DNA from: a bacterium
GTDB lineage: Bacteria; Acidobacteriota; Blastocatellia; HR10
Direction: 5' to 3'
DNA: 64,000 bases
NCBI GenBank assembly: GCA_041640655.1
Contig: JBEPZV010000001.1
Span: 154,845-218,844 of the forward strand
The position numbers and the translations under genes are program-made. Below the pieces are notes generated by a model. It was not told the origin of the DNA. It ran no database searches and saw only the letters and a list, made by a program, of their open reading frames with translations. Positions 2,736 through 36,568 of this stretch are shown one piece after another; the first letter of the stretch is position 1, and the number at the start of each line of letters is the position of its first letter.

Positions 2736-2738
2736 CCT

Positions 2739-5443: not shown

Positions 5444-5552
5444 GCCGATGCCGGGGCCTCAAGCGTTCCCTCGACGCGCGCGGGCTTGCCCGGCGCCGGC
5501 GCCGTGCGGCAAGCTTGAAGCGCGGGGCATCTTCGCGAAAGGAGGAGAAGAC

Positions 5553-6233: not shown

Positions 6234-6302
6234 CGTGGGCGCGCCCGTCCCGAATCGCGAGACGGGACGCCGTGAGAGAATCCGCATGAGGAGGTGAGGG
6301 CC

Positions 6303-7508: not shown

Positions 7509-7521
7509 TGCGGGGGAGGCG

Positions 7522-8346: not shown

Positions 8347-8380
8347 CCGATCCTCACATCGCCGCAGGGAGGACGTCACC

Positions 8381-8869
8381 ATGCCGAAACTGAAGTTCGA
8401 TCACATCGCTTTTCTAGTGCGCGATCTGGATCAGGCCGTGCGGGATTATCAGCAGATCCTGAGCGTCCTCGACCCGGAACAGGCGGAGCAGGTCGTCTGG
8501 GACGAGGGCGAAGCCGATGGCTATAAGCTCCGCTGGGCAACCTTCGTCAATCCCCACGGGACCTCGATCCAATTCTTCGAGAGTCAGCACCCGGCCGATC
8601 AAAAGCTCTTGGAGAAGTACGGCGAGCGCGTGCATCATCTGGCGTTCACGACGAGCGATCTCCCGCAGACGATCGCGGAGTTGCAAAAGGCGGGCATTCC
8701 GCTGATCAGCGCCGAGCCCACGGGGCCATCGCATATCCCCTGGTTGAAGTGGGTCTTCGTTCCTCCGCGCAAGGCGCACGGCGTGCTCATCGAGGTCGCC
8801 ACGCGCTATCGCGTGGAGAATAACCGATGGGTGCCCGATGTGGAGGGAGGAGACGAGGCATCGTCCTGA
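8381..8869 (+). CDS. VOC/glyoxalase-family protein (methylmalonyl-CoA-epimerase-like)
   Basis: Internal ATG at 8381 after GGGAGG; motifs HIAFLVRDLDQAV and HHLAF typical of the VOC fold. Confidence 0.6.
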   Translation: MPKLKFDHIAFLVRDLDQAVRDYQQILSVLDPEQAEQVVWDEGEADGYKLRWATFVNPHGTSIQFFESQHPADQKLLEKYGERVHHLAFTTSDLPQTIAELQKAGIPLISAEPTGPSHIPWLKWVFVPPRKAHGVLIEVATRYRVENNRWVPDVEGGDEASS

Positions 8870-8883
8870 GCGGAGGACCGAGC

Positions 8884-11924: not shown

Positions 11925-11947
11925 CGAACGAGAGAGGACGCTCTCGG

Positions 11948-13351: not shown

Positions 13352-14507
13352 GAGCCTCAAGGACAGAGTGGCCATCATCGGGATCGGTTGCACGAAGTTC
13401 GGCGAGCTGCACGAGAAGAGCCTTCAAGACCTGATGGTCGAGGCGAGCTTCGCCGCTTACGCGGACGCGGGGATCGAGCCCGATCGCGTGGAAGCGGCGT
13501 GGCTGGGAACGTTCTCACCGGGTTTCGGGGGAGGGAAGGCGAGCGTCACCCTGGCCGACGCGCTGCGACTCTATGGCAAGCCGATCACCCGCGTGGAGAA
13601 CTACTGCGCCACGGGGACCGATGCCTTCCGAAACGCGTGCCTGGCCGTGGCCGCCGGCGTCTACGAAGTGGCCTTGGTCGTCGGAGCGGAGAAGTTGCGA
13701 GATCGGCCCGTGCGGGGATTGCAACGCGAGGGGACGCATCCGTACTTGGAAGCGGGCTCGACCCCACCGGGACTTTTCGCCCTGGCAGCGAATCGGTATT
13801 TCCATCGCTTCGGCGGGGATCGGCGGACGTTGGCCAAGGTCGCCGTCAAGAATCATCACAACGGAGCCCTCAATCCGAAAGCCCATTTTCAGATGGAGGT
13901 GACCGAGGAGCAGGTCCTCAACGCGCCGCTCATCGCCTATCCGTTCGGTCTGTATGACTGCTGCCCCACGACAGACGGAGCCGCGGCCGTCATCATCTGT
14001 CGGGCCGATCTGGCGCGGCAGTTTCGAGACGATCCGGTCTACGTGAAGGGCATCGGATTGGCCGTGGAGACGGGATGGCCTTTCTTCGATCCCACGTTCG
14101 AGTACATCGGGTTCCCGGCGACGACGGCGGCGGCGGCCGAAGCCTATCGCATGGCGGGAATCCGCCACCCGGCGCGGGAGATCTCCGTGGCCGAAGTGCA
14201 TGATTGTTTCACGTGGACCGAGATCGCCAATTATGAGGACCTGGGCTTCTGTCGGAAGGGCGAGGGGAGGTACTTCATCGAGGAGGGACGGAGCGCGCTC
14301 ACGGGCGATCTGCCCGTGAATCCGAGCGGCGGATTGAAATCGTTCGGCCATCCGATCGGAGCCAGCGGCGTGCGCATGCTCACGGAGATCGTCCTGCAGT
14401 TGCGCGGTCAAGCCGGAGCTCGCCAGGTGAAGAACGCCGAGCTGGGACTCGTGCATAATCTGGGCGGACCCGGCTCGGTCGCCTGCGTCGTCATTCTCGG
14501 ACGGTGA
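13344..14507 (+). CDS. SCP2/nsLTP-type thiolase
   Basis: Thiolase-like (CATGTDAFRNA; active-site Cys region; C-terminal NPSGG.KSFGHPIGASG). Start overlaps upstream stop (ATGGGTGA). Confidence 0.75.
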   Translation: MGESLKDRVAIIGIGCTKFGELHEKSLQDLMVEASFAAYADAGIEPDRVEAAWLGTFSPGFGGGKASVTLADALRLYGKPITRVENYCATGTDAFRNACLAVAAGVYEVALVVGAEKLRDRPVRGLQREGTHPYLEAGSTPPGLFALAANRYFHRFGGDRRTLAKVAVKNHHNGALNPKAHFQMEVTEEQVLNAPLIAYPFGLYDCCPTTDGAAAVIICRADLARQFRDDPVYVKGIGLAVETGWPFFDPTFEYIGFPATTAAAAEAYRMAGIRHPAREISVAEVHDCFTWTEIANYEDLGFCRKGEGRYFIEEGRSALTGDLPVNPSGGLKSFGHPIGASGVRMLTEIVLQLRGQAGARQVKNAELGLVHNLGGPGSVACVVILGR

Positions 14508-14552
14508 ACATCGTTCGGGCAACCCCGCGGGGGATCCCTGAAGGAGTCGAGG

Positions 14553-15404
14553 ATGCGTATCGTCGTCTGCCTGACGCAGATTCTCGATCCGGAGATGCCG
14601 CCGAGTGAATTTCGACTGGATCCGCAACGAAAGGCGGCCGCCGAGGGGATCGGACAGCTCGTCGTCAGCATCTTCGATGAGAACGCGCTCGAGGTGGCGC
14701 TGCAGGTGCGCGAGCGCATAGCCGAGCGCGAGGGAGCACCCCACGCGATCTCTCGATCGCGTGAGGACCCCGGCCCGGTGGAGATCGTCGCGCTCACCGT
14801 CGGTCCTCCTTCGGCCGCCGACGTCCTGCGGAAGGCGCTCAGTCTGCGCGCCGATCGCGCCATTTTGATCTCCAGCGAGGGATGGCCTCCGCTGGAAGGC
14901 GCCATCGTCGCCCGCCTTCTGGCCGCCGCCGTGAGACGGCTCCATCCGGTGGACCTCGTGCTCTGCGGGCGCGAGACGGGAGATTGGCATGGGGGACAGG
15001 TCGGCGCCTTCCTGGCCGAAGCGCTCGGATGGGCGAGCGTGAGCTTCGTCTCCCGCATCGAGGTGGAGGGGGAGACCTTCCTCATGCGACGCCAATCGGA
15101 CGAAGGATGGGAGATCGTGCGCGCGAGACGACCCGCCGTGGCGACGATCACCAACGATGAGACGAACGTCCCGCGCTTGCCGAAGGTCAGAGATACGATG
15201 CTGGCCGCCCGCGCGTCGCTCCCCGTGTGGACGATCCCGGAACTGGTCGAAGATCCGAGAGAGCTGTGGCAGGCGAATGCCCTGCAGGTGCGCGAGTTGT
15301 TCATTCCGAGCAGCTCGAAGGCGTGCGAGGTGATCGAGGGGGAGACGGTTCAGGAGAAAGCCGTTCGGCTTCTCCAGGCGCTGCGCCGACGACGGATTCT
15401 CTGA
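14553..15404 (+). CDS. etfB: electron transfer flavoprotein beta subunit, carrying an in-frame 38-nt palindromic-element insertion
   Basis: EtfB family sequence (MRIVVCLTQILDP...). An extra loop GAPHAISRSREDPGP coincides with the palindromic element at 14734..14771. Confidence 0.85.
   Translation: MRIVVCLTQILDPEMPPSEFRLDPQRKAAAEGIGQLVVSIFDENALEVALQVRERIAEREGAPHAISRSREDPGPVEIVALTVGPPSAADVLRKALSLRADRAILISSEGWPPLEGAIVARLLAAAVRRLHPVDLVLCGRETGDWHGGQVGAFLAEALGWASVSFVSRIEVEGETFLMRRQSDEGWEIVRARRPAVATITNDETNVPRLPKVRDTMLAARASLPVWTIPELVEDPRELWQANALQVRELFIPSSSKACEVIEGETVQEKAVRLLQALRRRRIL
14734..14771 (+). repeat. 38-nt palindromic element copy a (GAGCA-CCCCACGCGATC-TCTC-GATCGCGTGAGG-ACCCC), inside etfB
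   Basis: Matches the consensus GGGCA CCCCACGCGATC TCCG GATCGCGTGGGG ACCCC found in four other copies; 12-bp arms. Confidence 0.8.
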
Positions 15405-15424
15405 GCTGAGAGGAGGACGTCCTC

Positions 15425-16420
15425 ATGCGCACCGTGATGGTTCTCCTGCCGACATCCCGCATCGAGCGGGCCGAGCGCGAGGCCATCGGCGCCGCGCGCG
15501 CGTTGTCGCGGGAATGGTCGGCGAACGTGCAGGTGGCCCTCATCGCCCCAACGGCGGAGGGAATCGAAGGCCTCCGAGGGAGGACGGAGGCCTCTGGAGA
15601 TGTGCGCCTGTGGATCGCCGCCCATCCGCAGCTGGCGGCGTATTCGCCCGAGCTGTATGTGAGCGCCAGCGAACAGCTCATCACACGCGCGCGACCGGAC
15701 GTGATTGTCTTCCCCAGTCGGACGATCCCGCTTGAGATCGCGCCGCGTCTCGCATACCGGATCGGGGCGGCGATGGCGACCGATGTCATCGAGCTGCGCG
15801 CCGAGGATGAGACCGTCCGCATCACGAAGCCCGTCTACGGCGGCAAGGCGCACGCGGTGTTGATGGCGCAACGGTTCCCCCTCGTCCTCTGCGTGCGCCC
15901 GCGCGCGTTCGATCCGTTTGAGGGGGAGCTGCGCGACGATGCGGCGATGCGCGTCCAGGTGACGCTCGATCCCTCGTCCGTCCGCACGCAGCTCGTCCGA
16001 CGGATTCAAGAGGACGCCGCGGCGGGAGTGTCGCTCGAAGAGGCGCGCGTCATCGTCAGCGGCGGGCGCGGCCTCGGCGGACCCGAGGGCTTCCGATTGC
16101 TCGAAGAATTGGCGCGGTGGCTCGGCGGCGCCGTCGGCGCTTCGCGCGCGGCGTGCGACGCCGGGTGGGTGCCGGCCAGCTGGCAAATCGGGCAAACGGG
16201 AAAGAAGGTCGCCCCCGATCTCTATATCGCCGTCGGGATCTCCGGAGCCAGCCAGCACATCGTCGGCATCTCCGGGGCCAAGTGCATCGTCGCCATCAAC
16301 ACGGACCCCAAAGCGCCGATCTTCACAGTGGCGGATCTCGGGATCGTCGGCGATTATCGAGCGGTCGTCCCCGCTCTGATCGCGGAGGTCAAACGGATGC
16401 GTGAGGAAGCAGAGGGATGA
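15425..16420 (+). CDS. etfA: electron transfer flavoprotein alpha subunit
   Basis: EtfA FAD-binding C-terminal motifs ([22 protein letters not shown]). Confidence 0.85.
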
Positions 16421-16458
16421 ACGCTTGAACGCGACGAGACCTTCTGGGAGGACGCGAC

Positions 16459-17256
16459 ATGAGTGAGCCGACGGTGCAGCTTGTCGTGGACGATGGCGTG
16501 GCCACGGTGACGCTCAACCGGCCCGAGGCGTTGAACGCTATTGACGCGACGTTGGCGGCCGAGTTGCGCGAGGTCTTTCGAACGTTGGGAGCGCGAGAGG
16601 ATGTTCGGGCCGTGATCCTGACGGGAGCGGGACGGGCGTTCTCGGCGGGTGCGGATTTGAAGTACCTTCACCGGAGATTGGAGGAGGGCGCTTCGGCCGA
16701 ACAGTTGCTGGACGAGTTGCTCGGGCCGTTGAACGATACAATTCGACTCATTCGGGGCATGCCGAAGATCATCATCGCGGCCATTCACGGGGTCGCCAGC
16801 GGTGGCGGCTGTAACCTCGCGCTGGCGTGCGATTATCGGGTGGCGGCTGTGGGGACGCGGTTCAACCAGGCGTTCGTGCGACTCGGGATCGCTCCGGATT
16901 GCGGAGGGACGTTCATTGTGCCGCGCCTGATCGGCTGGACGAAGGCGTTCGAATGGATGGTGAGTGGAGCGTTGATCGAGGCTGAGGAGGCGGCCGCCTG
17001 GGGACTCGTGCATCGCGTCGTCCCCGAGGATCGCGTGCTCGAAGAGGCGCGCGCCTTCGCGCGCTCCGTGTGCGAAGGGCCGACACGAGCGATCGTGACC
17101 ATCAAACACTTGCTCGCGATGAGCCTCGGAGCCTCCCTGGATGAGCAGCTGGAGCGGGAGCGGCAGCTCGTGGGCTTGCTCGCCGGCACCGAGGATTTCC
17201 GCGAAGGCGTGCGCGCCTTCCTCGAGAAGCGCCCCCCGCGCTTCTCCGGGCGATGA
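16459..17256 (+). CDS. enoyl-CoA hydratase/isomerase (crotonase family)
   Basis: Crotonase motifs (LNRPEALNA, GAGRAFSAGADL, GGGCNLALACD). Confidence 0.85.
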   Translation: MSEPTVQLVVDDGVATVTLNRPEALNAIDATLAAELREVFRTLGAREDVRAVILTGAGRAFSAGADLKYLHRRLEEGASAEQLLDELLGPLNDTIRLIRGMPKIIIAAIHGVASGGGCNLALACDYRVAAVGTRFNQAFVRLGIAPDCGGTFIVPRLIGWTKAFEWMVSGALIEAEEAAAWGLVHRVVPEDRVLEEARAFARSVCEGPTRAIVTIKHLLAMSLGASLDEQLERERQLVGLLAGTEDFREGVRAFLEKRPPRFSGR

Positions 17257-17335: not shown

Positions 17336-18292
17336 ATGTCGAGCGCATTCGAATTCGTTCCCCCCGGTCTCGATCTCGCCGATGATGACATCCATCCCAT
17401 CGGTCCGGAACCCTGGTGGCGCGAGGCCTGGTACTTCGAATTCTTCGACCCGGCTTCGCGCGTTCAGTTCCAGGTCTATCAAGGCATCTTCCCGAACGCC
17501 GGTCGAGGGGATCTGACCTGCTACGTGTTCGTGGAGGGACGCCTGCGATACGAGCTGATGAAGATGGACTTCGCGATTCCGTCCGACATCGGGCGGGAGC
17601 GCTTGTGCTTCGGCCCCTTGAAATTAGAGATGCTCGAGCCCTTCGTCCGATGGCGCTTGCGCTACGATAGCCCGAGGATGCAGTGCGATCTCTCCTTCCG
17701 CGCGCTCCATCGCGCCTTCAGTTGGGCGGAGACCCGGCTCTGGATGGAAGACGCTCCGGTCGGGCAGCAGAGCCGCCATTTCGATCAGGTGGGATGGTAC
17801 GAGGGATGGCTGCATCTGGATGACGAGCAGCTCTCCATCTCGGCGATCGGGATGCGCGATCGGATGTGGGGGTGGGGAGGGCGCGCTCTCTGGCGCGGGT
17901 ATCTGGTCCTGTGGGCGCCCTTCTCCGAAGCCTTCGTCGTCAATGTGGCGGCCATGAACTTCGCCGACGGTCGACGCCACCTCTGCGGATATCTCCATCG
18001 CGAGGGCGAACGCACCTATCTCGACTCCGCGCGCCTGACCATCACCTGGAGCGAGCAGCGATGGAAGTCGGTCGAACGTGTGCACGCGCAGCTCACCGAT
18101 CGGCGCGGGCGGTCGCTCGCGCTCTCGGCCCGACCGCTCGGCATCATTGATACATCGCATCATTGGCCGCACCGATTCGATCACCTCCTCTTCTCCATCG
18201 GCGAATATGAGTGCCAGGGGATGACCGGCTACGGATGCCTGACGTGGAGCTTCGTCACGGCGGAGGAGAAGATGCGCGCCATCGAGTTCTGA
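17336..18292 (+). CDS. hypothetical protein, possibly CrtC/AttH-like (lipocalin-like hydratase family)
   Basis: ATG 17336 after GGAGG; Trp-rich N-terminal motif PEPWWREAWYFEFFD resembles the EWWY signature of CrtC/AttH family proteins. Weak by-eye assignment. Confidence 0.35.
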   Translation: MSSAFEFVPPGLDLADDDIHPIGPEPWWREAWYFEFFDPASRVQFQVYQGIFPNAGRGDLTCYVFVEGRLRYELMKMDFAIPSDIGRERLCFGPLKLEMLEPFVRWRLRYDSPRMQCDLSFRALHRAFSWAETRLWMEDAPVGQQSRHFDQVGWYEGWLHLDDEQLSISAIGMRDRMWGWGGRALWRGYLVLWAPFSEAFVVNVAAMNFADGRRHLCGYLHREGERTYLDSARLTITWSEQRWKSVERVHAQLTDRRGRSLALSARPLGIIDTSHHWPHRFDHLLFSIGEYECQGMTGYGCLTWSFVTAEEKMRAIEF

Positions 18293-18316
18293 GAGGCGAA
18301 GCTCGGAGACGTGGCC

Positions 18317-19528
18317 ATGAAGTCGACCGACCTCACCGGGATCCTCCCGCGATCTCTCGATCGCGTGGCGTGCCTGAACGCGCTGCTCCATCGGTTCGGG
18401 GAGAGCGTCCGTCACTTCTTCCGCGCCGAGCAACGCTCGCACCTGTTCTCCCCCCTCTTTCATCTCCCCGGGCGATTGATCGCGGGGAGCTATTGCTACT
18501 ACGAGCACCTGGTGCCCTTGTTGCGACAGGTGGCGCGACAGATGCCGCCGGAAGCCCTCGCGCATCGGGTGAAGCGACTCGGGGCGCGACCCAACGAGAT
18601 CAACGCCAATTCTCTGCTGCTCGGGTATCTGAACGGGCGGGAGCAGCGGCGGCTGCTCGGCCATCGCGTGGCAGATGATCCGGAGGAGATCGCCTTCCTC
18701 CTGGACTTCTGGGCGCGCTTCCTCGCCGCCTATCGCGCCGATGGTCGGCTCTTGCCGGAGGAGAGCGGATTCGTTCTGCCGGTGCTCGAAGCGCGAGCGC
18801 TCGAAGTGCTCCTGCCGGAACTCCATCCGGAACCGGAGCACGCACGACGCCAGCGAGGTCCCCATGTGATCGGGAGATCGCGTGGGGTGCCCGAGCGGAT
18901 GCGTCGCGCCCTGGCCACGCTCGAGCTCTTCGCCTTCGTCTTCAACGGCGAGGCGCGCGTCGGCCTCTTTCACCACGGGCCCTATCCCCGACCCGACGGC
19001 ACGTGCGTGCTCGTCAAGGAGCTGGTGGGGTTGCAGGACGATTTCTATTCCTGGGCGGAGGAGTCCGTGCGACTCCCCGTGGCCCATGTGGCCTGCCTCT
19101 TGCTCGTGAAGGACGTCGAAGTGAGAATCGGTTTATTCGGATCGCTCCGGACGGAGCCCCGGGAGTACGCTCAGAACGTCGTGGCCTGTGGCCTCTTCAC
19201 CGCCACGGGGGAAGACGTTCGTCCTCTCACGCTCGAGGAGCTGGAGGAGATCGCCGCGCACGCGGCTGAGGCGCAGATGCGCCTCTATCGCCACTTCCTC
19301 ACATGGGATGATCGGCGTCGCATCGCCTATGGAGCGGAGCTCTACGGGAACCTGCTGCGCGTCTTCGGCGATCAGGCGGGACTCGGGCCGGATTTCCATC
19401 GGGAGATCCGAGAGCGCTTCCGGGAGAGCACGGACCGACATCTACAAGCCATACTCGCTGGCGAGCCTCCGGCCATCCTGCGGCATATCGCGGAGACGGC
19501 GGGAGAGATCTACAGCCCCCTCGCATGA
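18317..19528 (+). CDS. conserved hypothetical protein (paralog P1), carries an in-frame palindromic-element insertion
   Basis: About 400 aa, tandem paralog of 19541..20770 (shared blocks ATLEL.AF, GLF.HGPY, LYGNLL/LYLFAN). Insertion RGPHVIGRSRGVP maps to element copy c. Confidence 0.5.
   Translation: MKSTDLTGILPRSLDRVACLNALLHRFGESVRHFFRAEQRSHLFSPLFHLPGRLIAGSYCYYEHLVPLLRQVARQMPPEALAHRVKRLGARPNEINANSLLLGYLNGREQRRLLGHRVADDPEEIAFLLDFWARFLAAYRADGRLLPEESGFVLPVLEARALEVLLPELHPEPEHARRQRGPHVIGRSRGVPERMRRALATLELFAFVFNGEARVGLFHHGPYPRPDGTCVLVKELVGLQDDFYSWAEESVRLPVAHVACLLLVKDVEVRIGLFGSLRTEPREYAQNVVACGLFTATGEDVRPLTLEELEEIAAHAAEAQMRLYRHFLTWDDRRRIAYGAELYGNLLRVFGDQAGLGPDFHREIRERFRESTDRHLQAILAGEPPAILRHIAETAGEIYSPLA
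18855..18892 (-). repeat. 38-nt palindromic element copy c (inside P1 coding sequence, slightly degenerate)
   Basis: GAGGTCCCCATGTGATCGGGAGATCGCGTGGGGTGCCC; left arm carries 2 substitutions. Confidence 0.8.
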
Positions 19529-19540: not shown

Positions 19541-20770
19541 ATGAGGCGCATGACCCTCGAGGAGATCAATCGCCACATCCGGCTGATCGCGGAACAGCTG
19601 AAGGCGTTCATGCGCTCGGAGCAACGCGCGCTCCTGCGATCGGCGCTTTTTGACGTCCCCCGCCGCTCCTCGCTCGGATGGGAATGCCTCTACCGCACGG
19701 CCTATCCGCTGCTGGCGGACCTCACGTCGGTCGTCACGCCTGAGGAGATCGGACGCCGGATGAAGCGCGTGTGCGCGCGCCCGAATTTCCTCACGCTGAG
19801 CATTCTGATCTGCTGCTACCTCGGGGGACGCCAGCAGCGGATCCTCGATCTCGGCGTGCGACCGGGAGAGCCCTTCCCCGAGGATGATCCCGAGCAGATC
19901 GGCTTCGTCCTCGACTTCTGGTGGCGCGTCTGCCGCACCTATCGCGAGGATGGTGCCCTCTTGCCGGAAGAGCGAGGAGGGACGATGCCGATCCTGCCGG
20001 CCGGAACGATCGCTCGACTCCGCGCGCTGCTGGTCGAGACGGATCCGCTCACGGTGAAACGCCTTCGTCGTCTGGCGGCGACGCTGGAGCTGTACGCGTT
20101 CATCCTGCACGGGGAGCAACGCGATGGCCTCTTCGCGCACGGCCCGTACGCGCTGCAGGAGCGGGCGGGCACCCCACGCGATCTCCGGATCGCGTGGGGA
20201 CCCCGGGAGGTGCTCGTCATTCGCGAGTTCACCGACCTGCAGAACAGTTATCTCCCCTGGGCGCAGACGCGCGCGCGGAACCTCTACCCGAATCTGGCGC
20301 TCGCGCTCCAGCTTCGGGACGTGACGGCTCAGTTCGATCTCTTCGGAGGGGTGCGATTCGATCCCCCGGAATATGCTGATCGCGTTCGCGCCGTCGCGTT
20401 GGTGACCGTGGCCGACAATGGGGAGATCCGAGCCGTCCCTTTCGAGGAGATCGAGGAGATCGAACGCCGCGCGGCCGACGCCCAGATGGAGCTGTATCAA
20501 CGCGCGCTCTGCTGGTCGCCGCGCTTCAAGATCGAATACGGCCTCTACCTGTTCGCGAACCACGTGAAGGCGTTCTTCGATCTGGCGGGGGTGGAGGCGG
20601 GCGAGCGCATTCGTCGGGCGTTCGAAGAGGCCGCCGCTCCGTTCCTGCAGCGGTTGCTCGCCGATGCCGAACCACCATTCATCTGGCGGTTCATGGCGAC
20701 GACAGAAGGCGATTTCTTCTATCCGATCTCCGCGCAGATGCCCGAACGTGAGGGAGGAGAGGGGCGATGA
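19541..20770 (+). CDS. conserved hypothetical protein (paralog P2), carries an in-frame palindromic-element insertion
   Basis: Paralog of P1. Insertion GTPRDLRIAWGPRE (copy d) lies at a site where P1 has no insertion. Confidence 0.5.
   Translation: MRRMTLEEINRHIRLIAEQLKAFMRSEQRALLRSALFDVPRRSSLGWECLYRTAYPLLADLTSVVTPEEIGRRMKRVCARPNFLTLSILICCYLGGRQQRILDLGVRPGEPFPEDDPEQIGFVLDFWWRVCRTYREDGALLPEERGGTMPILPAGTIARLRALLVETDPLTVKRLRRLAATLELYAFILHGEQRDGLFAHGPYALQERAGTPRDLRIAWGPREVLVIREFTDLQNSYLPWAQTRARNLYPNLALALQLRDVTAQFDLFGGVRFDPPEYADRVRAVALVTVADNGEIRAVPFEEIEEIERRAADAQMELYQRALCWSPRFKIEYGLYLFANHVKAFFDLAGVEAGERIRRAFEEAAAPFLQRLLADAEPPFIWRFMATTEGDFFYPISAQMPEREGGEGR
20167..20204 (+). repeat. 38-nt palindromic element copy d (inside P2 coding sequence)
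   Basis: GGGCACCCCACGCGATCTCCGGATCGCGTGGGGACCCC; perfect 12-bp inverted arms. Confidence 0.85.
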
Positions 20771-22923
20771 GAGAGGAGAGCCTCTTGATGGTTCACCAGC
20801 AGGAGCCGCTTGGTCAGAGCGAGCCCGCTCGGGAATACTCCTGCGCTGTGGATACGGGGGGGACGTTCACCGACTGCGTCGTCGGCGATTCGGAGGGGAA
20901 TCTGGTCTTCGCCAAGAGCCCCTCGACGCCGCACGATTTTTCGGCGGGCTTCTTCGCCGCACTCGCCCTGGCGGCGGAGCAGCTTGGGCTCACGCTCACC
21001 GAACTGATGGCGCGCACGCGACGGCTCATGCACGGGACGACGGTGGGCACCAACGCCATGGTGGAGCTCAAAGGGGCGCGCGTGGGGTTGATCACGACGC
21101 GGGGGCATGGGGATGCCATCCTCATCATGCGCTCGGTGGGCCGCTCGGCGGGATTGCCGATCGAGCGGTTGCTGCATGTCTCCCGTCATCAGAAACCCCG
21201 GCCCCTCGTCCCCCGCCACCTCATTCGCGAGGTGAGCGAACGCGTGGACTGGCGCGGCGAGGTCATCGTGCCTCTGAATCGAGAAGAGGCGCGTCGCGCC
21301 ATCGAGGAGTTGCTGGAGCAGAAGGTCGAGGCCATCGCCATCGCCTTCCTCTGGGGATTCGTGAATCCCATCCACGAGCGCGAGGTTCGCCGCATGGTCG
21401 AGGAGATAGCGCCCGACCTCTTCGTCACCTGCGCGCACGAGTTGATCGCGAAGCCGGGCGAGTATGAGCGGACGGCGGCGACCGTGATCAATTGTTTCAT
21501 CGGGCCGAAGACGACGCAGTACATCCGCCGGGTGGAAGAGCGGGCTCGCGCGCTCGGCTGCACGGCTCCCCTCCTCATCATGCAAGCATCAGGTGGCGTC
21601 GCGCCGGCCCGGGAGATCCTGCGCGCGCCGTTGTTCACCATCGGCTCGGGGCCGGCAGGGGGCTTGATGGGATGCCAGTTCCTGGCCGAGACCCTCGGAC
21701 ATCCCCACGTCATCGCCACGGACATGGGGGGGACGAGCTTCGACGTCGGCCTCATCGTGGACGGGATGCCGCTGTCGGCGTCCGAGACCACACTCGAGCA
21801 GTACACCTTCTTCATGCCTCGCTTGGACATCCTCTCCATCGGCGCGGGCGGAGGATCCATCATCTGGATCGATGAGCGGAGCGGAACCCTGAAAGTCGGT
21901 CCGGAATCAGCGGGGGCAGACCCGGGACCCGCCTGCTACGGACGCGGAGGCACACGACCCACGGTGACCGATGCGGACCTCATCCTCGGCTATTACAATC
22001 CGGAGTTCTTCCTGGGGGGGAGGCTGACGCTCAATCCTGAAGCGGCTCACCACGCGATGCGCACGGTCGCCGACCCCCTCGGGTTGGACATCACCGAGGC
22101 GGCCGACGGAGCCACGCGGATCGTTGAGATGCAGATGGCCGATCTCATCCGGCAGATGACCATCCAGCGGGGATACGATCCGCGCGATTTCGTCATCTAC
22201 GCCTACGGCGGAGCCGCCGGCGCCCATGCGGCTGTCTACGCGCGGGAGTTGGGATGCCGCACGGTCGTCATCCCGCGCGGAGTCCTGGCCGCCACCTGGT
22301 CGGCCTTCGGGATCCTCTCGACGGATGTCCAGCACGTCTTCGAGAGATCGGAGCTGCTCATCGCACCCCTGGATGCGACGCGCGTCACGGAGATCTTCCT
22401 CGAGCTGGAAGAGCGAGCCCGCCGACAATTGTGCGAGGAGGGGGTGGCCGAGGATCAGATCCTCCTGCGCCGCTTCGCGGAGATGAAGTTCCGACTGCAG
22501 ATCCATCGCGTCGAGATCCCCGTCCCCGGTGGGATTCTGACCGATCAGGACATGCGCGATCTGGAGCAGGCATTCGTACAAAAGTACGAGACGCTCTATG
22601 GACGCGGATCGGCATTCACGGCGGCGGGCATGGAGATCGGCCTGCTGCGCGTGGTGGCGCTCGGGCGCATCGCTCGCGGGCCGTTGAAGCAGCTCTCCAC
22701 CGAGCACCGCAGCGGATGGACGCCCGTCGGACGGCGCCAGGTCTACTGGCGGGAACTCGGACGACGGATTCAAACGCCCATCTTCTCCGGGGAAGGGATC
22801 CCCCCTGAGACATCTCTGGAGGGTCCGGCGATCGTCGAACTGCCCGTGACGACCATCGTCGTCCGCCCGGGCGACCGCCTCACCACCGATGCATATGGGA
22901 ATTTCATCCTCACCCTCCCCTGA
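20767..22923 (+). CDS. hydantoinase A / acetone-carboxylase beta-like subunit (HyuA family)
   Basis: 718 aa; N-terminal AVDTGGTFTDCVV and ASKHD-superfamily ATPase motifs of hydantoinase A/oxoprolinase. Confidence 0.8.
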   Translation: MREESLLMVHQQEPLGQSEPAREYSCAVDTGGTFTDCVVGDSEGNLVFAKSPSTPHDFSAGFFAALALAAEQLGLTLTELMARTRRLMHGTTVGTNAMVELKGARVGLITTRGHGDAILIMRSVGRSAGLPIERLLHVSRHQKPRPLVPRHLIREVSERVDWRGEVIVPLNREEARRAIEELLEQKVEAIAIAFLWGFVNPIHEREVRRMVEEIAPDLFVTCAHELIAKPGEYERTAATVINCFIGPKTTQYIRRVEERARALGCTAPLLIMQASGGVAPAREILRAPLFTIGSGPAGGLMGCQFLAETLGHPHVIATDMGGTSFDVGLIVDGMPLSASETTLEQYTFFMPRLDILSIGAGGGSIIWIDERSGTLKVGPESAGADPGPACYGRGGTRPTVTDADLILGYYNPEFFLGGRLTLNPEAAHHAMRTVADPLGLDITEAADGATRIVEMQMADLIRQMTIQRGYDPRDFVIYAYGGAAGAHAAVYARELGCRTVVIPRGVLAATWSAFGILSTDVQHVFERSELLIAPLDATRVTEIFLELEERARRQLCEEGVAEDQILLRRFAEMKFRLQIHRVEIPVPGGILTDQDMRDLEQAFVQKYETLYGRGSAFTAAGMEIGLLRVVALGRIARGPLKQLSTEHRSGWTPVGRRQVYWRELGRRIQTPIFSGEGIPPETSLEGPAIVELPVTTIVVRPGDRLTTDAYGNFILTLP

Positions 22924-22955
22924 GCAGGGGGCTATCCCTTCGGAGGAGGACGACT

Positions 22956-25220
22956 ATGTCATCCATCGCGTGGGACGGCCGGCAATACCCCTACGTCTAT
23001 GGCCGAGAGCTGAAGATCGCTCCCGGCCTGAAACTCCACACGGAGGCGGTCGAGCGTATAGACCCGATCACCTACGAGGTCATCCGCCACGCCCTCTGGA
23101 ATATCAACGTCGAACACGGGCTGACCATCATGAAGATCTCCGGCTCCCCCATCTGCGCCTACGGGCATGACTTCAATCCCTGCCTCCTTGACGAGAAGGG
23201 GGATTTCGTCTTCTTCGGCCCGTTCCTTCAGTATCTCTCCTCGGCGACCAGCTCGGCGGTGAAGTGGACGCTGGAGTATCGCTCGGAGAATCCGGGGATC
23301 GAGGAGGACGACATCTTCTTGACGAACGATCCGTGGATCGGCGCGACCCATCAATCGGATGTGACGTTGATCGCGCCCGTCTTCTGGGAGGGGGAGCTGT
23401 TCTGCTGGGTGGGGAATACGCTGCACCAGTGGGATTTAGGGGGGACATCGCCCGGAGGGTTCAATCCCATGGCCCCCGATGTCTATTGGGAGGCCGGATG
23501 CATCCCCCCGATCAAGATCGTCGAACGCGGACGCTTGCGGCGCGATCTGGAGGAAGAGTACATCCGCCGGTCGCGAATGCCGGAACTGGTGGCCCTGGAT
23601 CTGCGCGCGGAGATCGCCGGCTGCCACGTCGCCCGCGAGCGCATCAAACAGTTGCTCGCGCGATACGGAGCCGCGACCGTCAAGGGCGTCATGCGCAAGC
23701 TTCAGGAGGATTCGGAGCGCGCCTTCGTGCGACGCTTGGCGACCATCCCCGATGGGACGTGGCGCGAGGTCGGATGGGTGGAGTGGGCGCACCCGGGCGA
23801 TCGGCGCGTGTACCGGAATTGCCTGACGCTCACCAAGCGCGGCGATCAGTTGATCTTCTCCAACGAGGGGACTGACCCACAAGCCGGCACGCTCAATTGC
23901 ACGCTCGTCGCCTGGAGGGGGGCCATCATGGCCATGGTCTCGGCGCAACTGCTCTTCGATCAGATGTTCGTCGTCGAAGGCGCCTATCGGCATGTCCAGT
24001 TCCAGGTGCAGCCGGGGACGCTCACGTGCGCGCTCTTTCCGGCCGCGGTGAGCGCTGCCCCCGCGCTCACGCTCCTTCAGACGATCGCCCTCTCGGGACT
24101 CGTGATCTCCAAGATGCTCGCCTGTTCGGACGATCCCGAGTTGCGGATGGAAGTCCAAAGCTGCATGGGCGCACCCATGTATCCGATCGCGGCCGTGAGC
24201 GGCCTCAATCAGCGGGGATCGCCCTACGTCTCCTTCCTGCTCGATCCGGTGGGAGCCGCCCTGGCCGGACTCTCCTGGCGAGATGGCGTGGATACGGGCG
24301 GCTGGCCCTGGGATCTGCAAAGCACCATGCCCAATGTCGAGGAGAACGAGTGGTTCTATCCGATCCTCTACCTCTGGCGTCGCGAGCTGCCCGATTCAGG
24401 CGGAGCGGGAATGTTCCGCGGTGGGAACGCCGCCGAATTGGCCTTCCTCCCTCATGGGACGGAACGCATCACGCTCTTCACCGCGACCGGACATTGCGCC
24501 GTCCCGGGACCGGGGCTGTTCGGCGGCTTCCCCACTTCGACGACGCGGTATGCCCTTGTTCGCAACACTCGCGCGCGATCACTCTTGTCCGCCGGACACG
24601 TGCCAGATCGCCTGGAGGTTCTCGGAGGACATGTGGAATATCTCCCGCCCAAGGCCTTCGACATCGTTCAGAATCCCGACGACGTCTTCATCATGTCCTG
24701 GGCCTCAGCGGGCGGCTACGGGGATCCGTTGCGGCGCGATCCTGAGCGCGTGGCCGAGGACTATCGCGAAGGGCGCTTGACCCGGGAGTGGGCGCAACGA
24801 GCCTATGGGGTCGTGCTCGATGAGACCGGAGCTGTCCTCGCGCCGGAGACGGAGCAGCTGCGCCAGCAGATGCGCCGGCATCGTATAGGAGCCGAGCCGA
24901 AGCCGCAAACGGCTCCTGATGAACCCGAGGCGCGCCTCTTGGCTGAAGGTCTGAAACTCGTCGGGGGATGGATCCGCTGCCGGTATTGCGATCATCCCCT
25001 CTCACCCCCGACGGAGAACTATAAGCGCCACTGCCTCCGAAAAAGCCTCTCCATTCAGGACGCGAACCCGCATATCCGCGATCCGAAGCTCTACATCGAA
25101 GAGACTCTGGAGTGGCGCCACTTCTACTGCCCGGGATGCGGCGCGCTCCTTCAGACGGAATTGGCGCGACCTTCGGATCCTCCCCTCTGGGACCTGCAGC
25201 TTGATCTCGGCGCGAAGTGA
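22956..25220 (+). CDS. hydantoinase B / acetone-carboxylase alpha-like subunit (HyuB family) with C-terminal Cys4 motif
   Basis: 754 aa HyuB-like. C-terminal CRYCDHP...CPGCGA resembles Zn-binding motifs of ATP-dependent ketone carboxylases. Confidence 0.8.
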   Translation: MSSIAWDGRQYPYVYGRELKIAPGLKLHTEAVERIDPITYEVIRHALWNINVEHGLTIMKISGSPICAYGHDFNPCLLDEKGDFVFFGPFLQYLSSATSSAVKWTLEYRSENPGIEEDDIFLTNDPWIGATHQSDVTLIAPVFWEGELFCWVGNTLHQWDLGGTSPGGFNPMAPDVYWEAGCIPPIKIVERGRLRRDLEEEYIRRSRMPELVALDLRAEIAGCHVARERIKQLLARYGAATVKGVMRKLQEDSERAFVRRLATIPDGTWREVGWVEWAHPGDRRVYRNCLTLTKRGDQLIFSNEGTDPQAGTLNCTLVAWRGAIMAMVSAQLLFDQMFVVEGAYRHVQFQVQPGTLTCALFPAAVSAAPALTLLQTIALSGLVISKMLACSDDPELRMEVQSCMGAPMYPIAAVSGLNQRGSPYVSFLLDPVGAALAGLSWRDGVDTGGWPWDLQSTMPNVEENEWFYPILYLWRRELPDSGGAGMFRGGNAAELAFLPHGTERITLFTATGHCAVPGPGLFGGFPTSTTRYALVRNTRARSLLSAGHVPDRLEVLGGHVEYLPPKAFDIVQNPDDVFIMSWASAGGYGDPLRRDPERVAEDYREGRLTREWAQRAYGVVLDETGAVLAPETEQLRQQMRRHRIGAEPKPQTAPDEPEARLLAEGLKLVGGWIRCRYCDHPLSPPTENYKRHCLRKSLSIQDANPHIRDPKLYIEETLEWRHFYCPGCGALLQTELARPSDPPLWDLQLDLGAK

Positions 25221-25252: not shown

Positions 25253-25597
25253 ATGAGGAAAATCGGGGAAGGGGAGCCGACGTCCGGACACGGCGCCGTC
25301 GGCATCTTGCGCAAAGTCGAAACCTTGGAGGACGTCCTGCGGTTGATGGAGATCGATCTCTCGGAGACGATCGTCTTCACTCCCTCGGCCTCGGTGACGG
25401 CCATCACGCCGATCCTTCCCAAGATCCGAGGGCTCATCTGCGCTTCCGGAGGCTTCACGTCGCATCTGGCGATCGTCGCCCGGGAGTTCGATCTGCCGTG
25501 CCTGATGGGAAGCCACCTCGAGGAGGTGAGCGCCCTCGAAGGACGTCGCGTGCGATTCACGGCCCAAGGGGAGATCTTTCTCGAGGACGATGTCTGA
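25253..25597 (+). CDS. PEP-utilizing enzyme mobile (phosphohistidine) domain protein, stand-alone
   Basis: GGFTSHLAIVAREFDLPCL matches the phosphohistidine swivel-domain signature; ATG 25253 after AAGGAGA. Confidence 0.7.
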   Translation: MRKIGEGEPTSGHGAVGILRKVETLEDVLRLMEIDLSETIVFTPSASVTAITPILPKIRGLICASGGFTSHLAIVAREFDLPCLMGSHLEEVSALEGRRVRFTAQGEIFLEDDV

Positions 25598-26468
25598 ACG
25601 GCGCCCGAAGATTTACCTGAATCTGAGCTTCCCCCAATTGGCCGCTCGGTACGCGCATCTTCCCGCCGATGGCGTCGGGCTCTTGCGCGCCGAATTCCTC
25701 GCCCTCTCGCTGGGTGTCCATCCGAAGCAGCTCCTCGCCGAAGGGGGGGCGGAGACCTTCATCCGAGCCTTCGCCGAGGGAGTGATCGAGGTCGCGCGCC
25801 AGTTCTGGCCCCGACCGGTCACCTATCGCGCGCTCGACCTGAAATCGAACGAATATCGCGGCCTGCGCGGAGGCCAGCAGCTCGAGGAGCCGGAAGAGAA
25901 CCCCGCGCTCGGTCTGCGCGGATGCCGCCGCTATCTGGATGATCCGGAGCTCCTCCGCCTCCAAGCGCGCGCCGTACGAAGCGTCCATGAGGCCGGATGG
26001 ACCAACGTGCGCCTGATGCTCCCCTTCGTGCGCACCGTGTCGGAGGTCCTCGCCTGCCGCGAGATCCTTCAGCAGGAGGGGCTCTTCGAGAGAGGTATCC
26101 CCCTCTGGATCATGGTCGAAGTGCCCTCGGTCGTCTTCCTCATCGAACGATTCCTCCCGTTGGTGGACGGCGTCTCCATCGGAACCAACGATCTCACGCA
26201 GCTCATCCTCGGCGTGGATCGAGATAACCCGCGATTGATCCCCCTGTGGGATGAGCGCGACGACGCCATCATGCGCGCTATCGAATGGGTCGCGCGCGCA
26301 TGCCGGGAGAGCGCCCTGGAGTGCTGCGTCTGCGGCGATGCCCCCTCGCGACGCCCGGAGCTGATCCCCCAGCTGCTGCAACTGGGCCTCACGGCCCTCT
26401 CGGTCTCCCCCGAGGCCTTTGAGCGAACGCTTCGAATCGTGCGCGAGAGAGAGCCCGGCTCAGGGTGA
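25590..26468 (+). CDS. PEP-utilizing enzyme C-terminal TIM-barrel (PEP/pyruvate-binding) domain protein, stand-alone
   Basis: PEP-synthase C-terminal domain motifs (GLLRAEFL, SIGTNDLTQ, CGDAPS); no ATP-grasp domain present. Confidence 0.7.
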   Translation: MSERRPKIYLNLSFPQLAARYAHLPADGVGLLRAEFLALSLGVHPKQLLAEGGAETFIRAFAEGVIEVARQFWPRPVTYRALDLKSNEYRGLRGGQQLEEPEENPALGLRGCRRYLDDPELLRLQARAVRSVHEAGWTNVRLMLPFVRTVSEVLACREILQQEGLFERGIPLWIMVEVPSVVFLIERFLPLVDGVSIGTNDLTQLILGVDRDNPRLIPLWDERDDAIMRAIEWVARACRESALECCVCGDAPSRRPELIPQLLQLGLTALSVSPEAFERTLRIVREREPGSG

Positions 26469-27120
26469 GCCGCTAGCGTACGTCGCTCGCCCAGAGCCGC
26501 GAGCCTTCTTGCTCCCATCACCCTCCCCGGGTTCCCCACCCTATCCCCCATCGCCACGATTTCCGCCTCATCTCAGTCCGTGCGGGGACGTCCGCTGCTG
26601 CTCTCGCTCTTGTTTCGTCCGTCGGCCCGCCGGATCCCCGGTCACCTCTCCATCCCCTCTGAATCCGACGCCTTTCAGGAACCGCCGCTGTGCCGGAAGC
26701 CACGACAGGCTCGATCGCGCATCATCGGGCGAAAATCCCTATATCCACATGAGCCTCCGCACGCTCATACCCGAAGCAGACGGCATCGGAACGTAGATCC
26801 CAGGTCGACCGCCTCGCCCACAACCTGCGAGGCAGCTCCCGCAGCAGATGCCTCAGCCTTCGACCATATCGGGGGCATCGGGTTTGGGCCGCGTCCTCCG
26901 ACAGGCGAAGCGCGCTCCCCATCCCACATCGGGGGGAGGGAGTCGGTCCGAGGATCCGCTCTTCGGGCTTTAAAACGAGCTTCGGTATGCCTTATGATTG
27001 ATCTTCCACAGGAGCGAGCACGATGTGTGAGCTGGACATGGAGAGAATGGCTCAGCGTGGGCATCCTGTGATCGGCGCGCGCTTCGCTCCGAGCGCGCTC
27101 TCTCAATAGGGAGGATCGCG

Positions 27121-28371
27121 ATGGCCTTCACCATGAAGGATCTCCACGATTTGATTCGGATCTTGGAGAAGCATCCGGAGTGGCGCACGGAACTGCGGCG
27201 GCTCCTTCTGACCGATCAGCTGCTGGAGCTGCCCGTCATCGTTCGCGAGTTGGCCGAAGCACAGCGACGAACGGAGGAACGCGTGGAGGCGTTGGCCGAG
27301 GCGCAGCGGCGGACGGAAGAACAGGTGCGGGCCTTGACGCAGCAGGTGCAGGCCTTGGCCGAGGCGCAACGGCGGACGGAGGAGCGGGTCAGTCGGGTGG
27401 AGGAAGAGCTGGCCAAGTTGGCCGAAGCGCAACGGCGGACGGAAGAACAGGTGCGGGCCTTGACGCAGCAGGTGCAGGCCTTGGCCGAGGCGCAACAGCG
27501 GACGGAGGAGCGGGTCAGTCGGGTGGAGGAAGAGCTGGCCAAGTTGGCCGAAGCGCAACGGCGGACGGAAGAACAGGTGCGGGCCTTGACGCAGCAGGTG
27601 CAGGCCTTGGCCGAGGCGCAACAGCGGACGGAGGAGCGGGTCAGTCGGGTGGAGGAAGAGCTGGCCAAGTTGGCCGAAGCGCAACGGCGGACGGAAGAAC
27701 AGGTCCGGGCCTTGACCGAGGCGCAGCGACGAACGGAAGAACAGGTGCGAGCCTTGACTGAAGCGCAGCGGCGGACGGAGGAGCAGGTGCAAGCCTTGAC
27801 CGAAGCGCAGCGGCGGATCGAACAGCAAGTCGCCGATCTGGTGGCCGCTCAACAGCGCACCGAGCGCACCTTGCAACGCCTCCTCGAATGGCAACAGGGC
27901 GAAGCGGGACGGCGCGAGGGCGAGCGATACGAGCGGCGCATCGTGGTGCGCGCGCCCAACCTGTTCTTCGGTGGCGAGGGCGGTGCACCCGGGGAGCCGG
28001 ATGTGCGTCGTCAACTCAGCCGGTGGCTTCACCCGTTCTATCGAGAGGGTCGAGCCCCGGATCCCCCCGCCGATCCTCTCCTGGCCGACCTCATTTGGTG
28101 GAAAGGAGAGGAAGTGTTCGTCGTGGAGGTGTCGCAGAAAGTGGACCCTCAGGACATCCACCGCGCCCGTCAACGAGCCGATACCTTGCGCGAAGCGGGC
28201 GTGAACGCCACACCGGCTGTGATCGGCGAGGAGTGGGCGACGCCGGAGTCACAGGCGCTGGCCCAACAGGAATCGGTGGAATGGTTGGTCGGCGGAGGCC
28301 TTTCCCAGGGGTTCCTGCGCTTCCGCCGCCTGTCAGCCGAGACGCTGGAAAATCCCCCACGCGAAGGATGA
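27121..28371 (+). CDS. coiled-coil repeat protein (paralog A) with C-terminal putative PD-(D/E)xK-like domain
   Basis: N-terminal conserved block [22 protein letters not shown], then repeats of AEAQRRTEE(R/Q)V..., C-terminal FVVEVSQK block; ribosome-binding site GGGAGG. Confidence 0.6.
   Translation: MAFTMKDLHDLIRILEKHPEWRTELRRLLLTDQLLELPVIVRELAEAQRRTEERVEALAEAQRRTEEQVRALTQQVQALAEAQRRTEERVSRVEEELAKLAEAQRRTEEQVRALTQQVQALAEAQQRTEERVSRVEEELAKLAEAQRRTEEQVRALTQQVQALAEAQQRTEERVSRVEEELAKLAEAQRRTEEQVRALTEAQRRTEEQVRALTEAQRRTEEQVQALTEAQRRIEQQVADLVAAQQRTERTLQRLLEWQQGEAGRREGERYERRIVVRAPNLFFGGEGGAPGEPDVRRQLSRWLHPFYREGRAPDPPADPLLADLIWWKGEEVFVVEVSQKVDPQDIHRARQRADTLREAGVNATPAVIGEEWATPESQALAQQESVEWLVGGGLSQGFLRFRRLSAETLENPPREG
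27292..27810 (+). repeat. intragenic tandem repeat: 126-nt unit x3 followed by about 42-nt units x3
   Basis: Near-identical nucleotide units gccgaggcgcaacggcggacggaggagcgggtcagtcgggtggaggaagagctggccaagttg... Confidence 0.8.
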
Positions 28372-30613: not shown

Positions 30614-31009
30614 ATGAAAGAATTGGAGAAAACACTCAAAGCGTTGGCTGATCCAAGCCGATTGAGAATCTTGAACATCTTGTTCCACCAAGAAGTCTGT
30701 GTTTGCGATCTGCAATCGGTGTTGGGATTGCCCCAACCATTGCTTTCCCGGCACTTGGCGTATCTCCGAAACGCGCACCTGGTGCGAGACCGTCGAGACG
30801 GTCCGCGCGTGTGGTATTCGCTGGCGCTCGATGACGAAGTGGGACGCGCAGTTCGAGAGTTTCTTCAGAGAGTGTTTCCACTTTTTGAAACCTTTCAGAC
30901 AGATTCAGCGAGAATGCGGCAATTTACGGAGAGTTGCGCCACCCCGCGAGGACATCAAAAGCTCCATCGGCGGGCCAATAGCTTAGCATTCGAGGAGATG
31001 ACATCATGA
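30614..31009 (+). CDS. arsR: ArsR/SmtB family metalloregulator
   Basis: LADPSRLRILNIL winged-helix motif plus metal-binding CVCDL; lower-GC segment. Confidence 0.85.
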   Translation: MKELEKTLKALADPSRLRILNILFHQEVCVCDLQSVLGLPQPLLSRHLAYLRNAHLVRDRRDGPRVWYSLALDDEVGRAVREFLQRVFPLFETFQTDSARMRQFTESCATPRGHQKLHRRANSLAFEEMTS

Positions 31010-36555: not shown

Positions 36556-36568
36556 CGTCACCCCCTCC

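Follow-up and report, generated by a model that had tools for sequence, protein, structure and literature searches.

Which reaction is catalysed by a HyuA-like/HyuB-like protein pair encoded among acyl-CoA degradation genes in an acidobacterial genome? The pair lies at 20767-25220 of a 64,000-nucleotide stretch, here called the window (contig JBEPZV010000001.1, assembly GCA_041640655.1, positions 154,845 to 218,844; Blastocatellia, HR10 lineage). ATP-dependent ketone carboxylases are, to our knowledge, among the few known attacks on inert ketones, and only the acetone and acetophenone types have been characterised. A first-pass annotation, made from the sequence, had proposed a carboxylase of this kind. 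We suggest, with a probability of about one half, that HyuA and HyuB, the latter with a fused gamma domain (HyuB-gamma), constitute an acetone-carboxylase-type alpha-beta-gamma enzyme, which is one of two separable units in a phosphoenolpyruvate (PEP) phosphotransfer module. The module, comprising a PEP relay, the paralogous proteins UnkA and UnkB, a lyase homologue and HyuAB-gamma, is conserved and apparently undescribed; literature searches for a hydantoinase-plus-PEP-utiliser system and for DUF7064/7065 returned nothing relevant.

The HyuA/HyuB-gamma pair and its operon

Both open reading frames are present on the plus strand, with the 718 and 754 amino acids first assigned to them. The HyuA frame (20767-22923) encodes an ATP-binding subunit of the ASKHA type with the Pfam domains Hydant_A_N, Hydantoinase_A and Hydant_A_C (E 3e-85, far better than the Pfam cut-offs require), and its true start is probably at 20788 (711 amino acids) according to gene calls on independent contigs, including locus L001. 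The phosphate-1, phosphate-2 and adenosine motifs, as defined for the family (PMC8453981), are all present (DTGGTFTD at 29, DMGGT at 319, GADPGP at 383). The HyuB frame (22956-25220, plus strand) encodes the catalytic, metal-binding subunit (22956-24974; Pfam Hydantoinase_B at residues 36-591, E 3e-99, and a poorly conserved linker at residues 592-673), to which a gamma-subunit domain is fused C-terminally (24975-25220; Pfam Acetone_carb_G at residues 674-751, E 6e-9; NCBIfam ApcB, 1e-6; PDB 5l9w_C, 3e-4).

The C-terminal Cys4 motif reported earlier was found as C675-x2-C678 and C725-x2-C728. The two CxxC pairs are 50 residues apart, in agreement with Cys22/25 and Cys75/78 of the gamma subunit of acetophenone carboxylase (Apc), and the four cysteines are retained in 95-108 of 114 full-length homologues. 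In a Haloterrigena homologue (44% identity) the region is a separate gene, annotated as acetone carboxylase subunit gamma. By sequence, the motif is the zinc ribbon of a fused acetone-carboxylase gamma subunit; the description of the cluster as having no separate gamma subunit had overlooked that gamma is present within HyuB. A gamma subunit has been reported only for acetone carboxylase (Acx) and Apc and is found in no hydantoinase or lactamase complex (PMC5214803), so its presence discriminates a carboxylase from a hydrolase. The metal ligands, which had been proposed as a further check, gave a mixed outcome: D72, H132, D135 and H157 of HyuB align with the Apc ligands D65, H123, D126 and H148, and the tetrad is invariant in 114/114 full-length homologues, but it is uninformative for carboxylase versus hydrolase because the hydrolases share it (PMC8453981).

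Compared with Acx of Xanthobacter autotrophicus and Aromatoleum aromaticum (PDB 5SVB/5M45), the window agrees in its three parts and their order along the DNA (HyuA-like, HyuB-like, Cys4 gamma), in having a single kinase subunit and in the conserved His-Asp-His metal ligands, and the beta-keto acid product predicted here would likewise be handled by a 3-oxoacid CoA-transferase and a thiolase. The differences are the fusion of gamma to HyuB, similarity at the family level only, short of that of orthologues, a TetR regulator in the window run, and the presence here of a PEP relay, Unk proteins and a lyase homologue, which the Acx clusters lack. Apc of Aromatoleum aromaticum (PDB 5L9W) is the best structural-database match of both HyuB and the gamma domain, has the same D-H-D-H tetrad with Asp first, and gives a precedent for a carboxylase in which phosphorylation takes place twice, in separate events, and a further, dissociable protein is needed. 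Apc, an enzyme of five subunits, differs in possessing alpha', a second kinase subunit, and epsilon, whereas one HyuA-like gene is present here (a second was absent among the genes scanned in the 22-gene run), and the second phosphoryl donor here, if any, would be PEP via a phospho-histidine and not a second ATP site.

The pair belongs to a run of 22 co-directional plus-strand genes (421-26468) with intergenic gaps of at most 79 nucleotides. The acyl-CoA genes upstream (421-17256, assigned by Pfam and NCBIfam) encode, in order, a phytoene-desaturase-like flavoprotein, CoA-transferase A/B, a reductase of the Old Yellow Enzyme (OYE)/BaiCD type, TetR, an acyl-CoA dehydrogenase (ACAD), a short-chain dehydrogenase/reductase (SDR), a glyoxalase-like protein, a PaaK-like ligase, a fused CoA-transferase of the 3-oxoacid family (NCBIfam), an HMGCS-like protein with DUF35, an SCPx-type thiolase, the electron transfer flavoprotein (ETF) beta and alpha subunits and an enoyl-CoA hydratase (ECH); the DUF7065/7064 protein, UnkA, UnkB, HyuA, HyuB-gamma, PEP-mobile and PEP_C follow. 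The placement of the acyl-CoA genes in the same operon thus held, all of them being present on one strand, except that there is one ACAD and not several. The block from the PaaK-like ligase (8827) to ECH (17256) is kept with the module in five related loci (L098, L101, L102, L103 and L120). The cluster had been taken to end at 25220, but it extends over two PEP-utiliser genes (25253-25597 and 25590-26468), and behind them a terminator-like hairpin (26485-26504, plus strand; a consensus match only, with a weak T tail) is the probable operon end.

Acid-activating genes recur around HyuB-gamma elsewhere. An AMP-forming ligase lies directly downstream in L008, L092 and the Haloterrigena locus and upstream in Nitrospina, a thiolase is directly downstream in L006, and CoA-transferase A/B pairs are nearby in L092, L093 and the type II loci described below. 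No aminotransferase, amidase or nitrogen-handling gene was seen in the window operon or in related loci. This context fits an acid, probably a beta-keto acid, as the product of HyuAB-gamma, and the conversion of a ketone to a beta-keto acid is favoured over that of a lactam to an amino acid because the neighbours are acid-activating and aminotransferases and amidases are lacking.

Two further observations concern the upstream genes. At 11915-14507 the window encodes an archaeal-type HMGCS-like protein with a C-terminal DUF35 (zinc ribbon plus OB) fusion, followed by the SCPx-type thiolase, whose conservation is unusual: it reaches 92-94% identity in loci with a UnkB of only 64-75%. HMGCS-type enzymes convert a ketone to a tertiary alcohol, and such chemistry may be connected to the phospho-lyase homologue of the module. 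The phytoene-desaturase/amine-oxidase-like FAD protein (421-1818 in the window, 16597-17988 in L093, and also in L105, L106, L116, L119 and L122; 54-56% identity) lies close to the module both in the window and in type II loci, accompanied by an ACAD and CoA-transferases A and B, and it probably belongs to the same pathway.

The PEP-utiliser pair, UnkA/UnkB and a putative lyase homologue

Besides the genes recognised at first, the cluster contains a PEP-utiliser pair and a putative phosphosteroid-lyase homologue, which the first-pass annotation had overlooked. PEP-mobile (25253-25597, plus strand, 114 amino acids; Pfam PEP-utilizers, E 5e-12) is a mobile (swivel) protein with the phospho-acceptor histidine in GGFTSH (codon 25463-25465). 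Its best PDB matches are the swivel domains of entries 5fbs and 5hv1, which we take to be rifampicin phosphotransferases, enzymes phosphorylating a small-molecule hydroxyl. Its ATG is preceded at 7 nucleotides by an AAGGAGA Shine-Dalgarno sequence and leaves a 32-nucleotide gap behind HyuB; translational coupling of the two genes through overlapping codons was therefore rejected. PEP_C (25590-26468, plus strand, 292 amino acids; Pfam PEP-utilizers_C, E 8e-64) overlaps the PEP-mobile gene by 8 nucleotides and is a stand-alone PEP/pyruvate-binding TIM barrel, matching the C-terminal domain of PEP synthase with 2e-68 and about 50% identity. The NCBIfam PEP synthase model is covered only at 357-438 and 481-789, the latter by PEP_C.

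The RxE, RxxD, NPxLGxRG, E, ND and CG motifs are kept in PEP_C, and R33/E35, R80/D83, R110, E177, N200/D201 and C248 are invariant in 25 members of the stand-alone family, which is large. The roles of these residues (catalytic Arg, Mg-binding Glu/Asp, proton-donor Cys) are taken over from pyruvate phosphate dikinase (PPDK) and enzyme I of the phosphotransferase system (PTS). Neither the scanned genes of the 22-gene run nor those called in the module loci showed an ATP-grasp (PPDK_N) domain. The pair shares with PEP synthase, PPDK, PTS enzyme I and rifampicin phosphotransferase the GGxTSH histidine and the PEP_C catalytic Arg, Glu, Asn-Asp and Cys, and it retains their division into donor site, swivel domain and acceptor site; the differences are that the parts are split into small proteins and that, in our proposal, UnkA/UnkB replace the ATP-grasp domain. 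A PEP_C scan of a genome collection detected, among the matches listed, only ordinary PEP synthases (42-51% identity) with no Hyu genes nearby.

UnkB (19541-20770, plus strand; called start 19550, 406 amino acids) is the hallmark of the module and, with UnkA (18311-19528, plus strand; called start 18317, 403 amino acids), accounts for the extra paralogues of no recognised family that had been noted. They are true paralogues (38% identity, E 7e-71), and UnkA adjoins UnkB always in related loci. UnkB has no Pfam or NCBIfam match. Confident modelling gave no structural match for UnkA/UnkB, and the UnkB model has no similarity to ATP-grasp. An Arg/His cluster (LHGEQRDGxFxHGPY) is invariant in Unk. 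About 210 UnkB homologues, all unnamed, were collected, and 321 representative clusters were found among 1.84 billion proteins. Natural fusions suggest how the parts fit together. Protein P0341 joins a C-terminal half of UnkA to UnkB in one reading frame, which suggests that UnkA and UnkB form a heterodimer, and P0494 and P0456 join an N-terminal PEP-mobile domain, with the catalytic His kept, to an Unk domain. Together with PEP_C, the Unk fusions give the three-part layout of PEP synthase, with Unk in the predicted position of ATP-grasp. In the most divergent UnkB loci (L124, 8041-8370; L127, 3075-3401) PEP-mobile stands alone next to UnkB, no PEP_C being detected within some 10 kb, and the carrier there may be charged by a different donor.

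The DUF7065/DUF7064 protein (17336-18292, plus strand; "Rv3169 family"; Pfam DUF7064 2e-13, DUF7065 3e-6; NCBIfam Rv3169_fam 4e-22, under its cut-off) appears to be a remote homologue of 25-phosphosteroid lyase (25-PSL), mainly in one domain, and is called PSL-like here. A profile of seven DUF7065/7064 proteins of the module matched 25-PSL (9fzn/9g2i/9g4c) with E 7.7e-11 over the N-terminal 160 residues, and the family invariants YF..F, G-YPN-D, GPLK-E, H, QLG-G and G-RDR-WG aligned to identical 25-PSL residues. The window sequence alone gave no 25-PSL match, and its single-sequence AlphaFold model had a pLDDT of 34.7. Two other candidate relationships were rejected by hhalign (probability <1% each): one between the PSL-like family and a protein of Haloterrigena labelled "acetoacetate decarboxylase family", the other between Unk and a 391-residue Nitrospina protein of no recognised family.

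The linkage of these genes was recovered from three anchors. With HyuB as the anchor, contigs carrying identical proteins and the locus of a 77% homologue keep PSL-like, UnkA, UnkB, HyuA, HyuB-gamma, PEP-mobile and PEP_C, with an AMP-ligase inserted into the module in the latter. With PEP_C as the anchor, 3/3 loci (51-58% identity, chosen blind to context) contain HyuA, HyuB-gamma, Unk and PEP-mobile, in three different gene orders. With UnkB as the anchor (a metagenome scan yielding 29 loci of at least 9 kb), PEP-mobile was found in 24/29 loci, PEP_C in 22/29, HyuA/B in 22/29 and DUF7065/7064 in 17/29; PEP-mobile adjoins PEP_C in all module loci. Type I loci resemble the window and carry CoA-transferase, HMGCS-DUF35, thiolase, ETF and ECH genes upstream of the module. 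Type II loci have the order HyuA, HyuB-gamma, PSL-like, UnkA, UnkB, PEP-mobile, PEP_C, a second PSL-like gene and a luciferase-like oxidoreductase, continuing with CoA-transferase A/B, ACAD and a phytoene-desaturase-like flavoprotein.

In a neighbour-joining tree of HyuB-gamma, the flags for module linkage, which rest on contig-length matching among the best 120 hits of each search, fall in three clades and are absent from two. Of four loci confirmed to be module-less, three (P0009, P0023, P0108) lie in the two unflagged clades, and the fourth (P0057, from Nitrospina) is unflagged inside a flagged clade. Divergent Unk/PEP loci stand with luciferase-like oxidoreductases, ligases, SDRs and P450s, with no HyuAB within reach.

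Proposed mechanism and competing explanations

We infer carboxylation, the substrate class and the direction of phosphoryl flow from the observed domain content, motifs, gene linkage and fusions. HyuA would use ATP to turn a ketone into its enol phosphate and to activate bicarbonate, and HyuB would join the two to a beta-keto acid, which the neighbouring 3-oxoacid CoA-transferases or ligase would convert to a CoA ester for cleavage by the thiolase. In the second unit, the PEP/pyruvate barrel would charge the phospho-histidine carrier, which would dock on the UnkA/UnkB heterodimer standing in for the ATP-grasp domain. Two roles of this unit may be considered. PEP could supply the second phosphoryl group of the carboxylase reaction. 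Two kinase sites and an additional protein are required by Apc, and the passage of a phosphoryl group from PEP to a second enol is nearly isoenergetic. Alternatively, the unit could phosphorylate a hydroxyl of a pathway substrate, from which the lyase homologue would eliminate phosphate, PEP making the step irreversible.

UnkA/UnkB, the carrier and the PEP barrel would then represent a new class of PEP-utilising enzyme, with a heterodimer of unseen fold receiving the phosphoryl group. Together with HyuAB-gamma and the lyase homologue they would provide PEP-coupled carbonyl/alcohol activation in uncultivated Acidobacteriota, Binatia, Actinomycetota and others, acting on inert, possibly isoprenoid or alicyclic compounds. 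We put this broader proposal forward tentatively. The recurrent neighbours (luciferase-like oxidoreductases, SDRs, P450s, SnoaL-like proteins, the OYE/BaiCD-like reductase and the phytoene-desaturase-like flavoprotein) allow the conjecture that the substrate is a lipophilic alicyclic or isoprenoid compound.

The first-pass reading as a ketone carboxylase is thus retained in part, through the gamma zinc ribbon and the flanking CoA-transferases, ligases and thiolases; the similarity scores stand on the other side. The PDB matches of HyuA to caprolactamase CapA (2e-127), Apc (1e-122), N-methylhydantoinase (2e-114) and Acx beta (3e-97) are about equal, those of HyuB are Apc 5e-50, CapB 2e-42 and Acx alpha 1e-38, and against the PDB Acx chains the scores were 330 bits for beta and 136 bits for alpha, the latter split over two fragments. 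Every NCBIfam equivalog score stays far under its cut-off (CapA 568/1000, ApcC 425/1500, ApcA 225/1250, ApcD 177/1500, CapB 172/1000, ApcB 29/250), and for this reason the pair, by sequence, is a separate clade, orthologous to no characterised enzyme (Acx, Apc or caprolactamase).

Several points weigh against the carboxylase assignment. Besides the scores below cut-off, HyuA is marginally nearer to CapA than to Apc/Acx by PDB and NCBIfam scores, a placement based on score comparisons. The first metal ligand of HyuB is Asp72, at the position where Xanthobacter Acx has its gating Glu89. The role of gamma is thought to be structural (PMC5214803), which makes its presence a correlative and not a mechanistic argument. 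HyuAB-gamma also occurs alone, as does Unk/PEP in loci whose UnkB has 42-47% identity, so the two units need not form one complex. Simple carboxylation does not account for a DUF7065/7064 homologue of a phosphate-eliminating lyase next to the enzyme, and the support for the assignment as a whole is of the sequence level.

The main rival is phospho-activation followed by elimination, with no carboxylation, and we consider it rather unlikely. HyuAB-gamma and/or the PEP relay would phosphorylate a tertiary or secondary alcohol or an enol, and the lyase homologue would expel phosphate to give an alkene, following the logic of 25-hydroxysteroid kinase (25-HSK) and 25-PSL in the anaerobic breakdown of sterol side chains. 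There the APH-type kinase 25-HSK makes a tertiary phosphoester from which 25-PSL eliminates phosphate, and the transfer potential of this phosphoester is at least that of ATP, which renders 25-HSK reversible (PMC8449060); PEP, in the window, would make the phosphorylation irreversible. The profile match to 25-PSL with its shared invariant motifs speaks for this explanation, as do the position of the PSL-like gene (the third gene before HyuA in the window, immediately behind HyuB-gamma in type II loci), its co-occurrence with HyuA/B in 17 loci, and the swivel domains of the 5fbs/5hv1 entries as nearest solved relatives of PEP-mobile. The namesake Rv3169 adjoins, judging from gene numbers only, Rv3168, an APH-fold putative phosphotransferase (PMC3691515). 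The system of Sterolibacterium denitrificans (PDB 9FZN) also resembles the module in the pairing of a lyase with phosphoryl-transfer enzymes, and protein types co-purified with 25-HSK (acyl-CoA synthetase, phytoene-dehydrogenase-like, luciferase-like) recur around the module.

The likeness has its limits, as the kinase there is of the APH type and uses ATP, and the homology to 25-PSL is remote and confined mainly to the N-terminal domain, with no match for the window protein taken alone. The scanned genes of the window include neither an APH-domain protein nor a Mo-dependent steroid C25/C26 dehydrogenase (C25-hydroxylase-type molybdoenzyme), divergent Unk/PEP loci lack the PSL-like gene, as do L094 and L136, phosphate loss from a vinylic enol phosphate is chemically unfavourable, and elimination leaves the retained gamma domain unexplained. 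We had also considered the HyuAB-like enzymes as the ATP-dependent steroid dehydratase of Sterolibacterium and rejected this, as the 2020 paper makes no mention of hydantoinases and the kinase is of the APH type. As a separate observation, APH-type phosphotransferase genes lie near HyuAB-gamma in loci with no Unk/PEP unit, at 516-1610 of L005 (a Nitrospina metagenome-assembled genome, MAG) and 7951-9018 of L095 (the Haloterrigena plasmid), and in L095 an acetoacetate-decarboxylase-family gene is directly upstream of HyuA.

An ATP-dependent amidohydrolase of the hydantoinase, 5-oxoprolinase or caprolactamase type, which would open the ring of a lactam or cyclic imide to yield an acid for CoA-dependent degradation, is improbable. 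The two core subunits, ATP motifs, metal tetrad and tunnel architecture are shared with these enzymes (CapAB 6YRA, N-methylhydantoinase, 5-oxoprolinase), HyuA matches CapA and N-methylhydantoinase best, the intact tetrad has Asp first as in the hydrolases, and the JGI family label is N-methylhydantoinase B. The hydrolases are, however, alpha-beta enzymes with no gamma, set in an amino-acid/nitrogen gene context, whereas gamma is present here as a fused, conserved zinc ribbon, both CapA and CapB fall under their cut-offs, the best match of HyuB is Apc and not CapB, and the genes around the pair (CoA-transferases, thiolases, ACAD, ETF, ECH) belong to CoA-dependent carbon-chain degradation, with the nitrogen-related genes missing.

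It is very improbable that the Unk genes and the PEP-utiliser pair are passengers (a fragmented PEP synthase, for instance) with no relation to a self-sufficient Acx-like carboxylase beside them: Acx needs three subunits only (PMC5214803), and homologues at 59-71% HyuB identity, like the 44% Haloterrigena homologue, have no such pair within 10 kb, but the stand-alone PEP_C proteins form a large family in which every catalytic residue is invariant, the HyuAB/Unk linkage is seen from three independent anchors and in several gene orders, the association tracks HyuB clades, and natural PEP-mobile/Unk fusions exist.

Distribution, other window genes and significance

The HyuB family gave 2628 matches among the scored candidates and ranges over Blastocatellia, Binatia, Methylomirabilota, Nitrospina and Actinomycetota MAGs. 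Its labels vary between N-methylhydantoinase B (JGI) and acetophenone carboxylase delta. The window proteins were also detected in the NCBI whole-genome shotgun entry LJSS01 and, nearly identical, in "bacterium HR08/HR10".

Further genes of the window were noted as well. A 416-residue coiled-coil-rich protein encoded behind it (27121-28371) had only sub-threshold SMC-/tropomyosin-like hits and is not conserved in related loci. The minus-strand region 33331-38705 encodes a tetrathionate/thiosulfate-reductase-like molybdoenzyme (1092 amino acids, TtrA model 514 bits), a 4Fe-4S subunit and a 322-residue protein with no family match; the molybdoenzyme is not of the steroid/ethylbenzene-dehydrogenase type and is unrelated to the cluster. 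It had been considered as the steroid C25 dehydrogenase and was rejected, being TtrA/PhsA-like and located in a lower-GC segment. Positions 30614-32052 and 40747-51305 form a lower-GC segment (49-59%, compared with 65% in the cluster) with genes for ArsR and an ArsP-type permease, CusCBA-like RND efflux, two multicopper-oxidase-domain proteins and a P-type ATPase, which looks like a metal-resistance island and was possibly acquired horizontally. The lowest-GC part of the window (48.6%) contains, at 51867-52994, a gene for a 375-residue protein with MtrA (tetrahydromethanopterin S-methyltransferase subunit A) and pterin-binding DUF4346 domains, which is unexpected in an acidobacterial context.

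The HyuAB-gamma clade occurs widely in bacteria of soil, sediment and hot springs, none of them with a cultured representative, and it is annotated inconsistently. Its conserved partnership with a PEP relay, a protein family of no known fold and a lyase homologue suggests that phosphoryl-transfer chemistry not described before takes part in the degradation of carbon chains. If our proposal is true, the system could be the first PEP-assisted ketone carboxylase or, alternatively, could dehydrate alcohols through phosphoesters with PEP as the driving force. Should PEP be a co-substrate, the system would represent a new energetic solution for the activation of ketones or tertiary alcohols, and would provide a function for the orphan families UnkA/UnkB and DUF7065/7064 and for many "truncated PEP synthase" genes of metagenomes.

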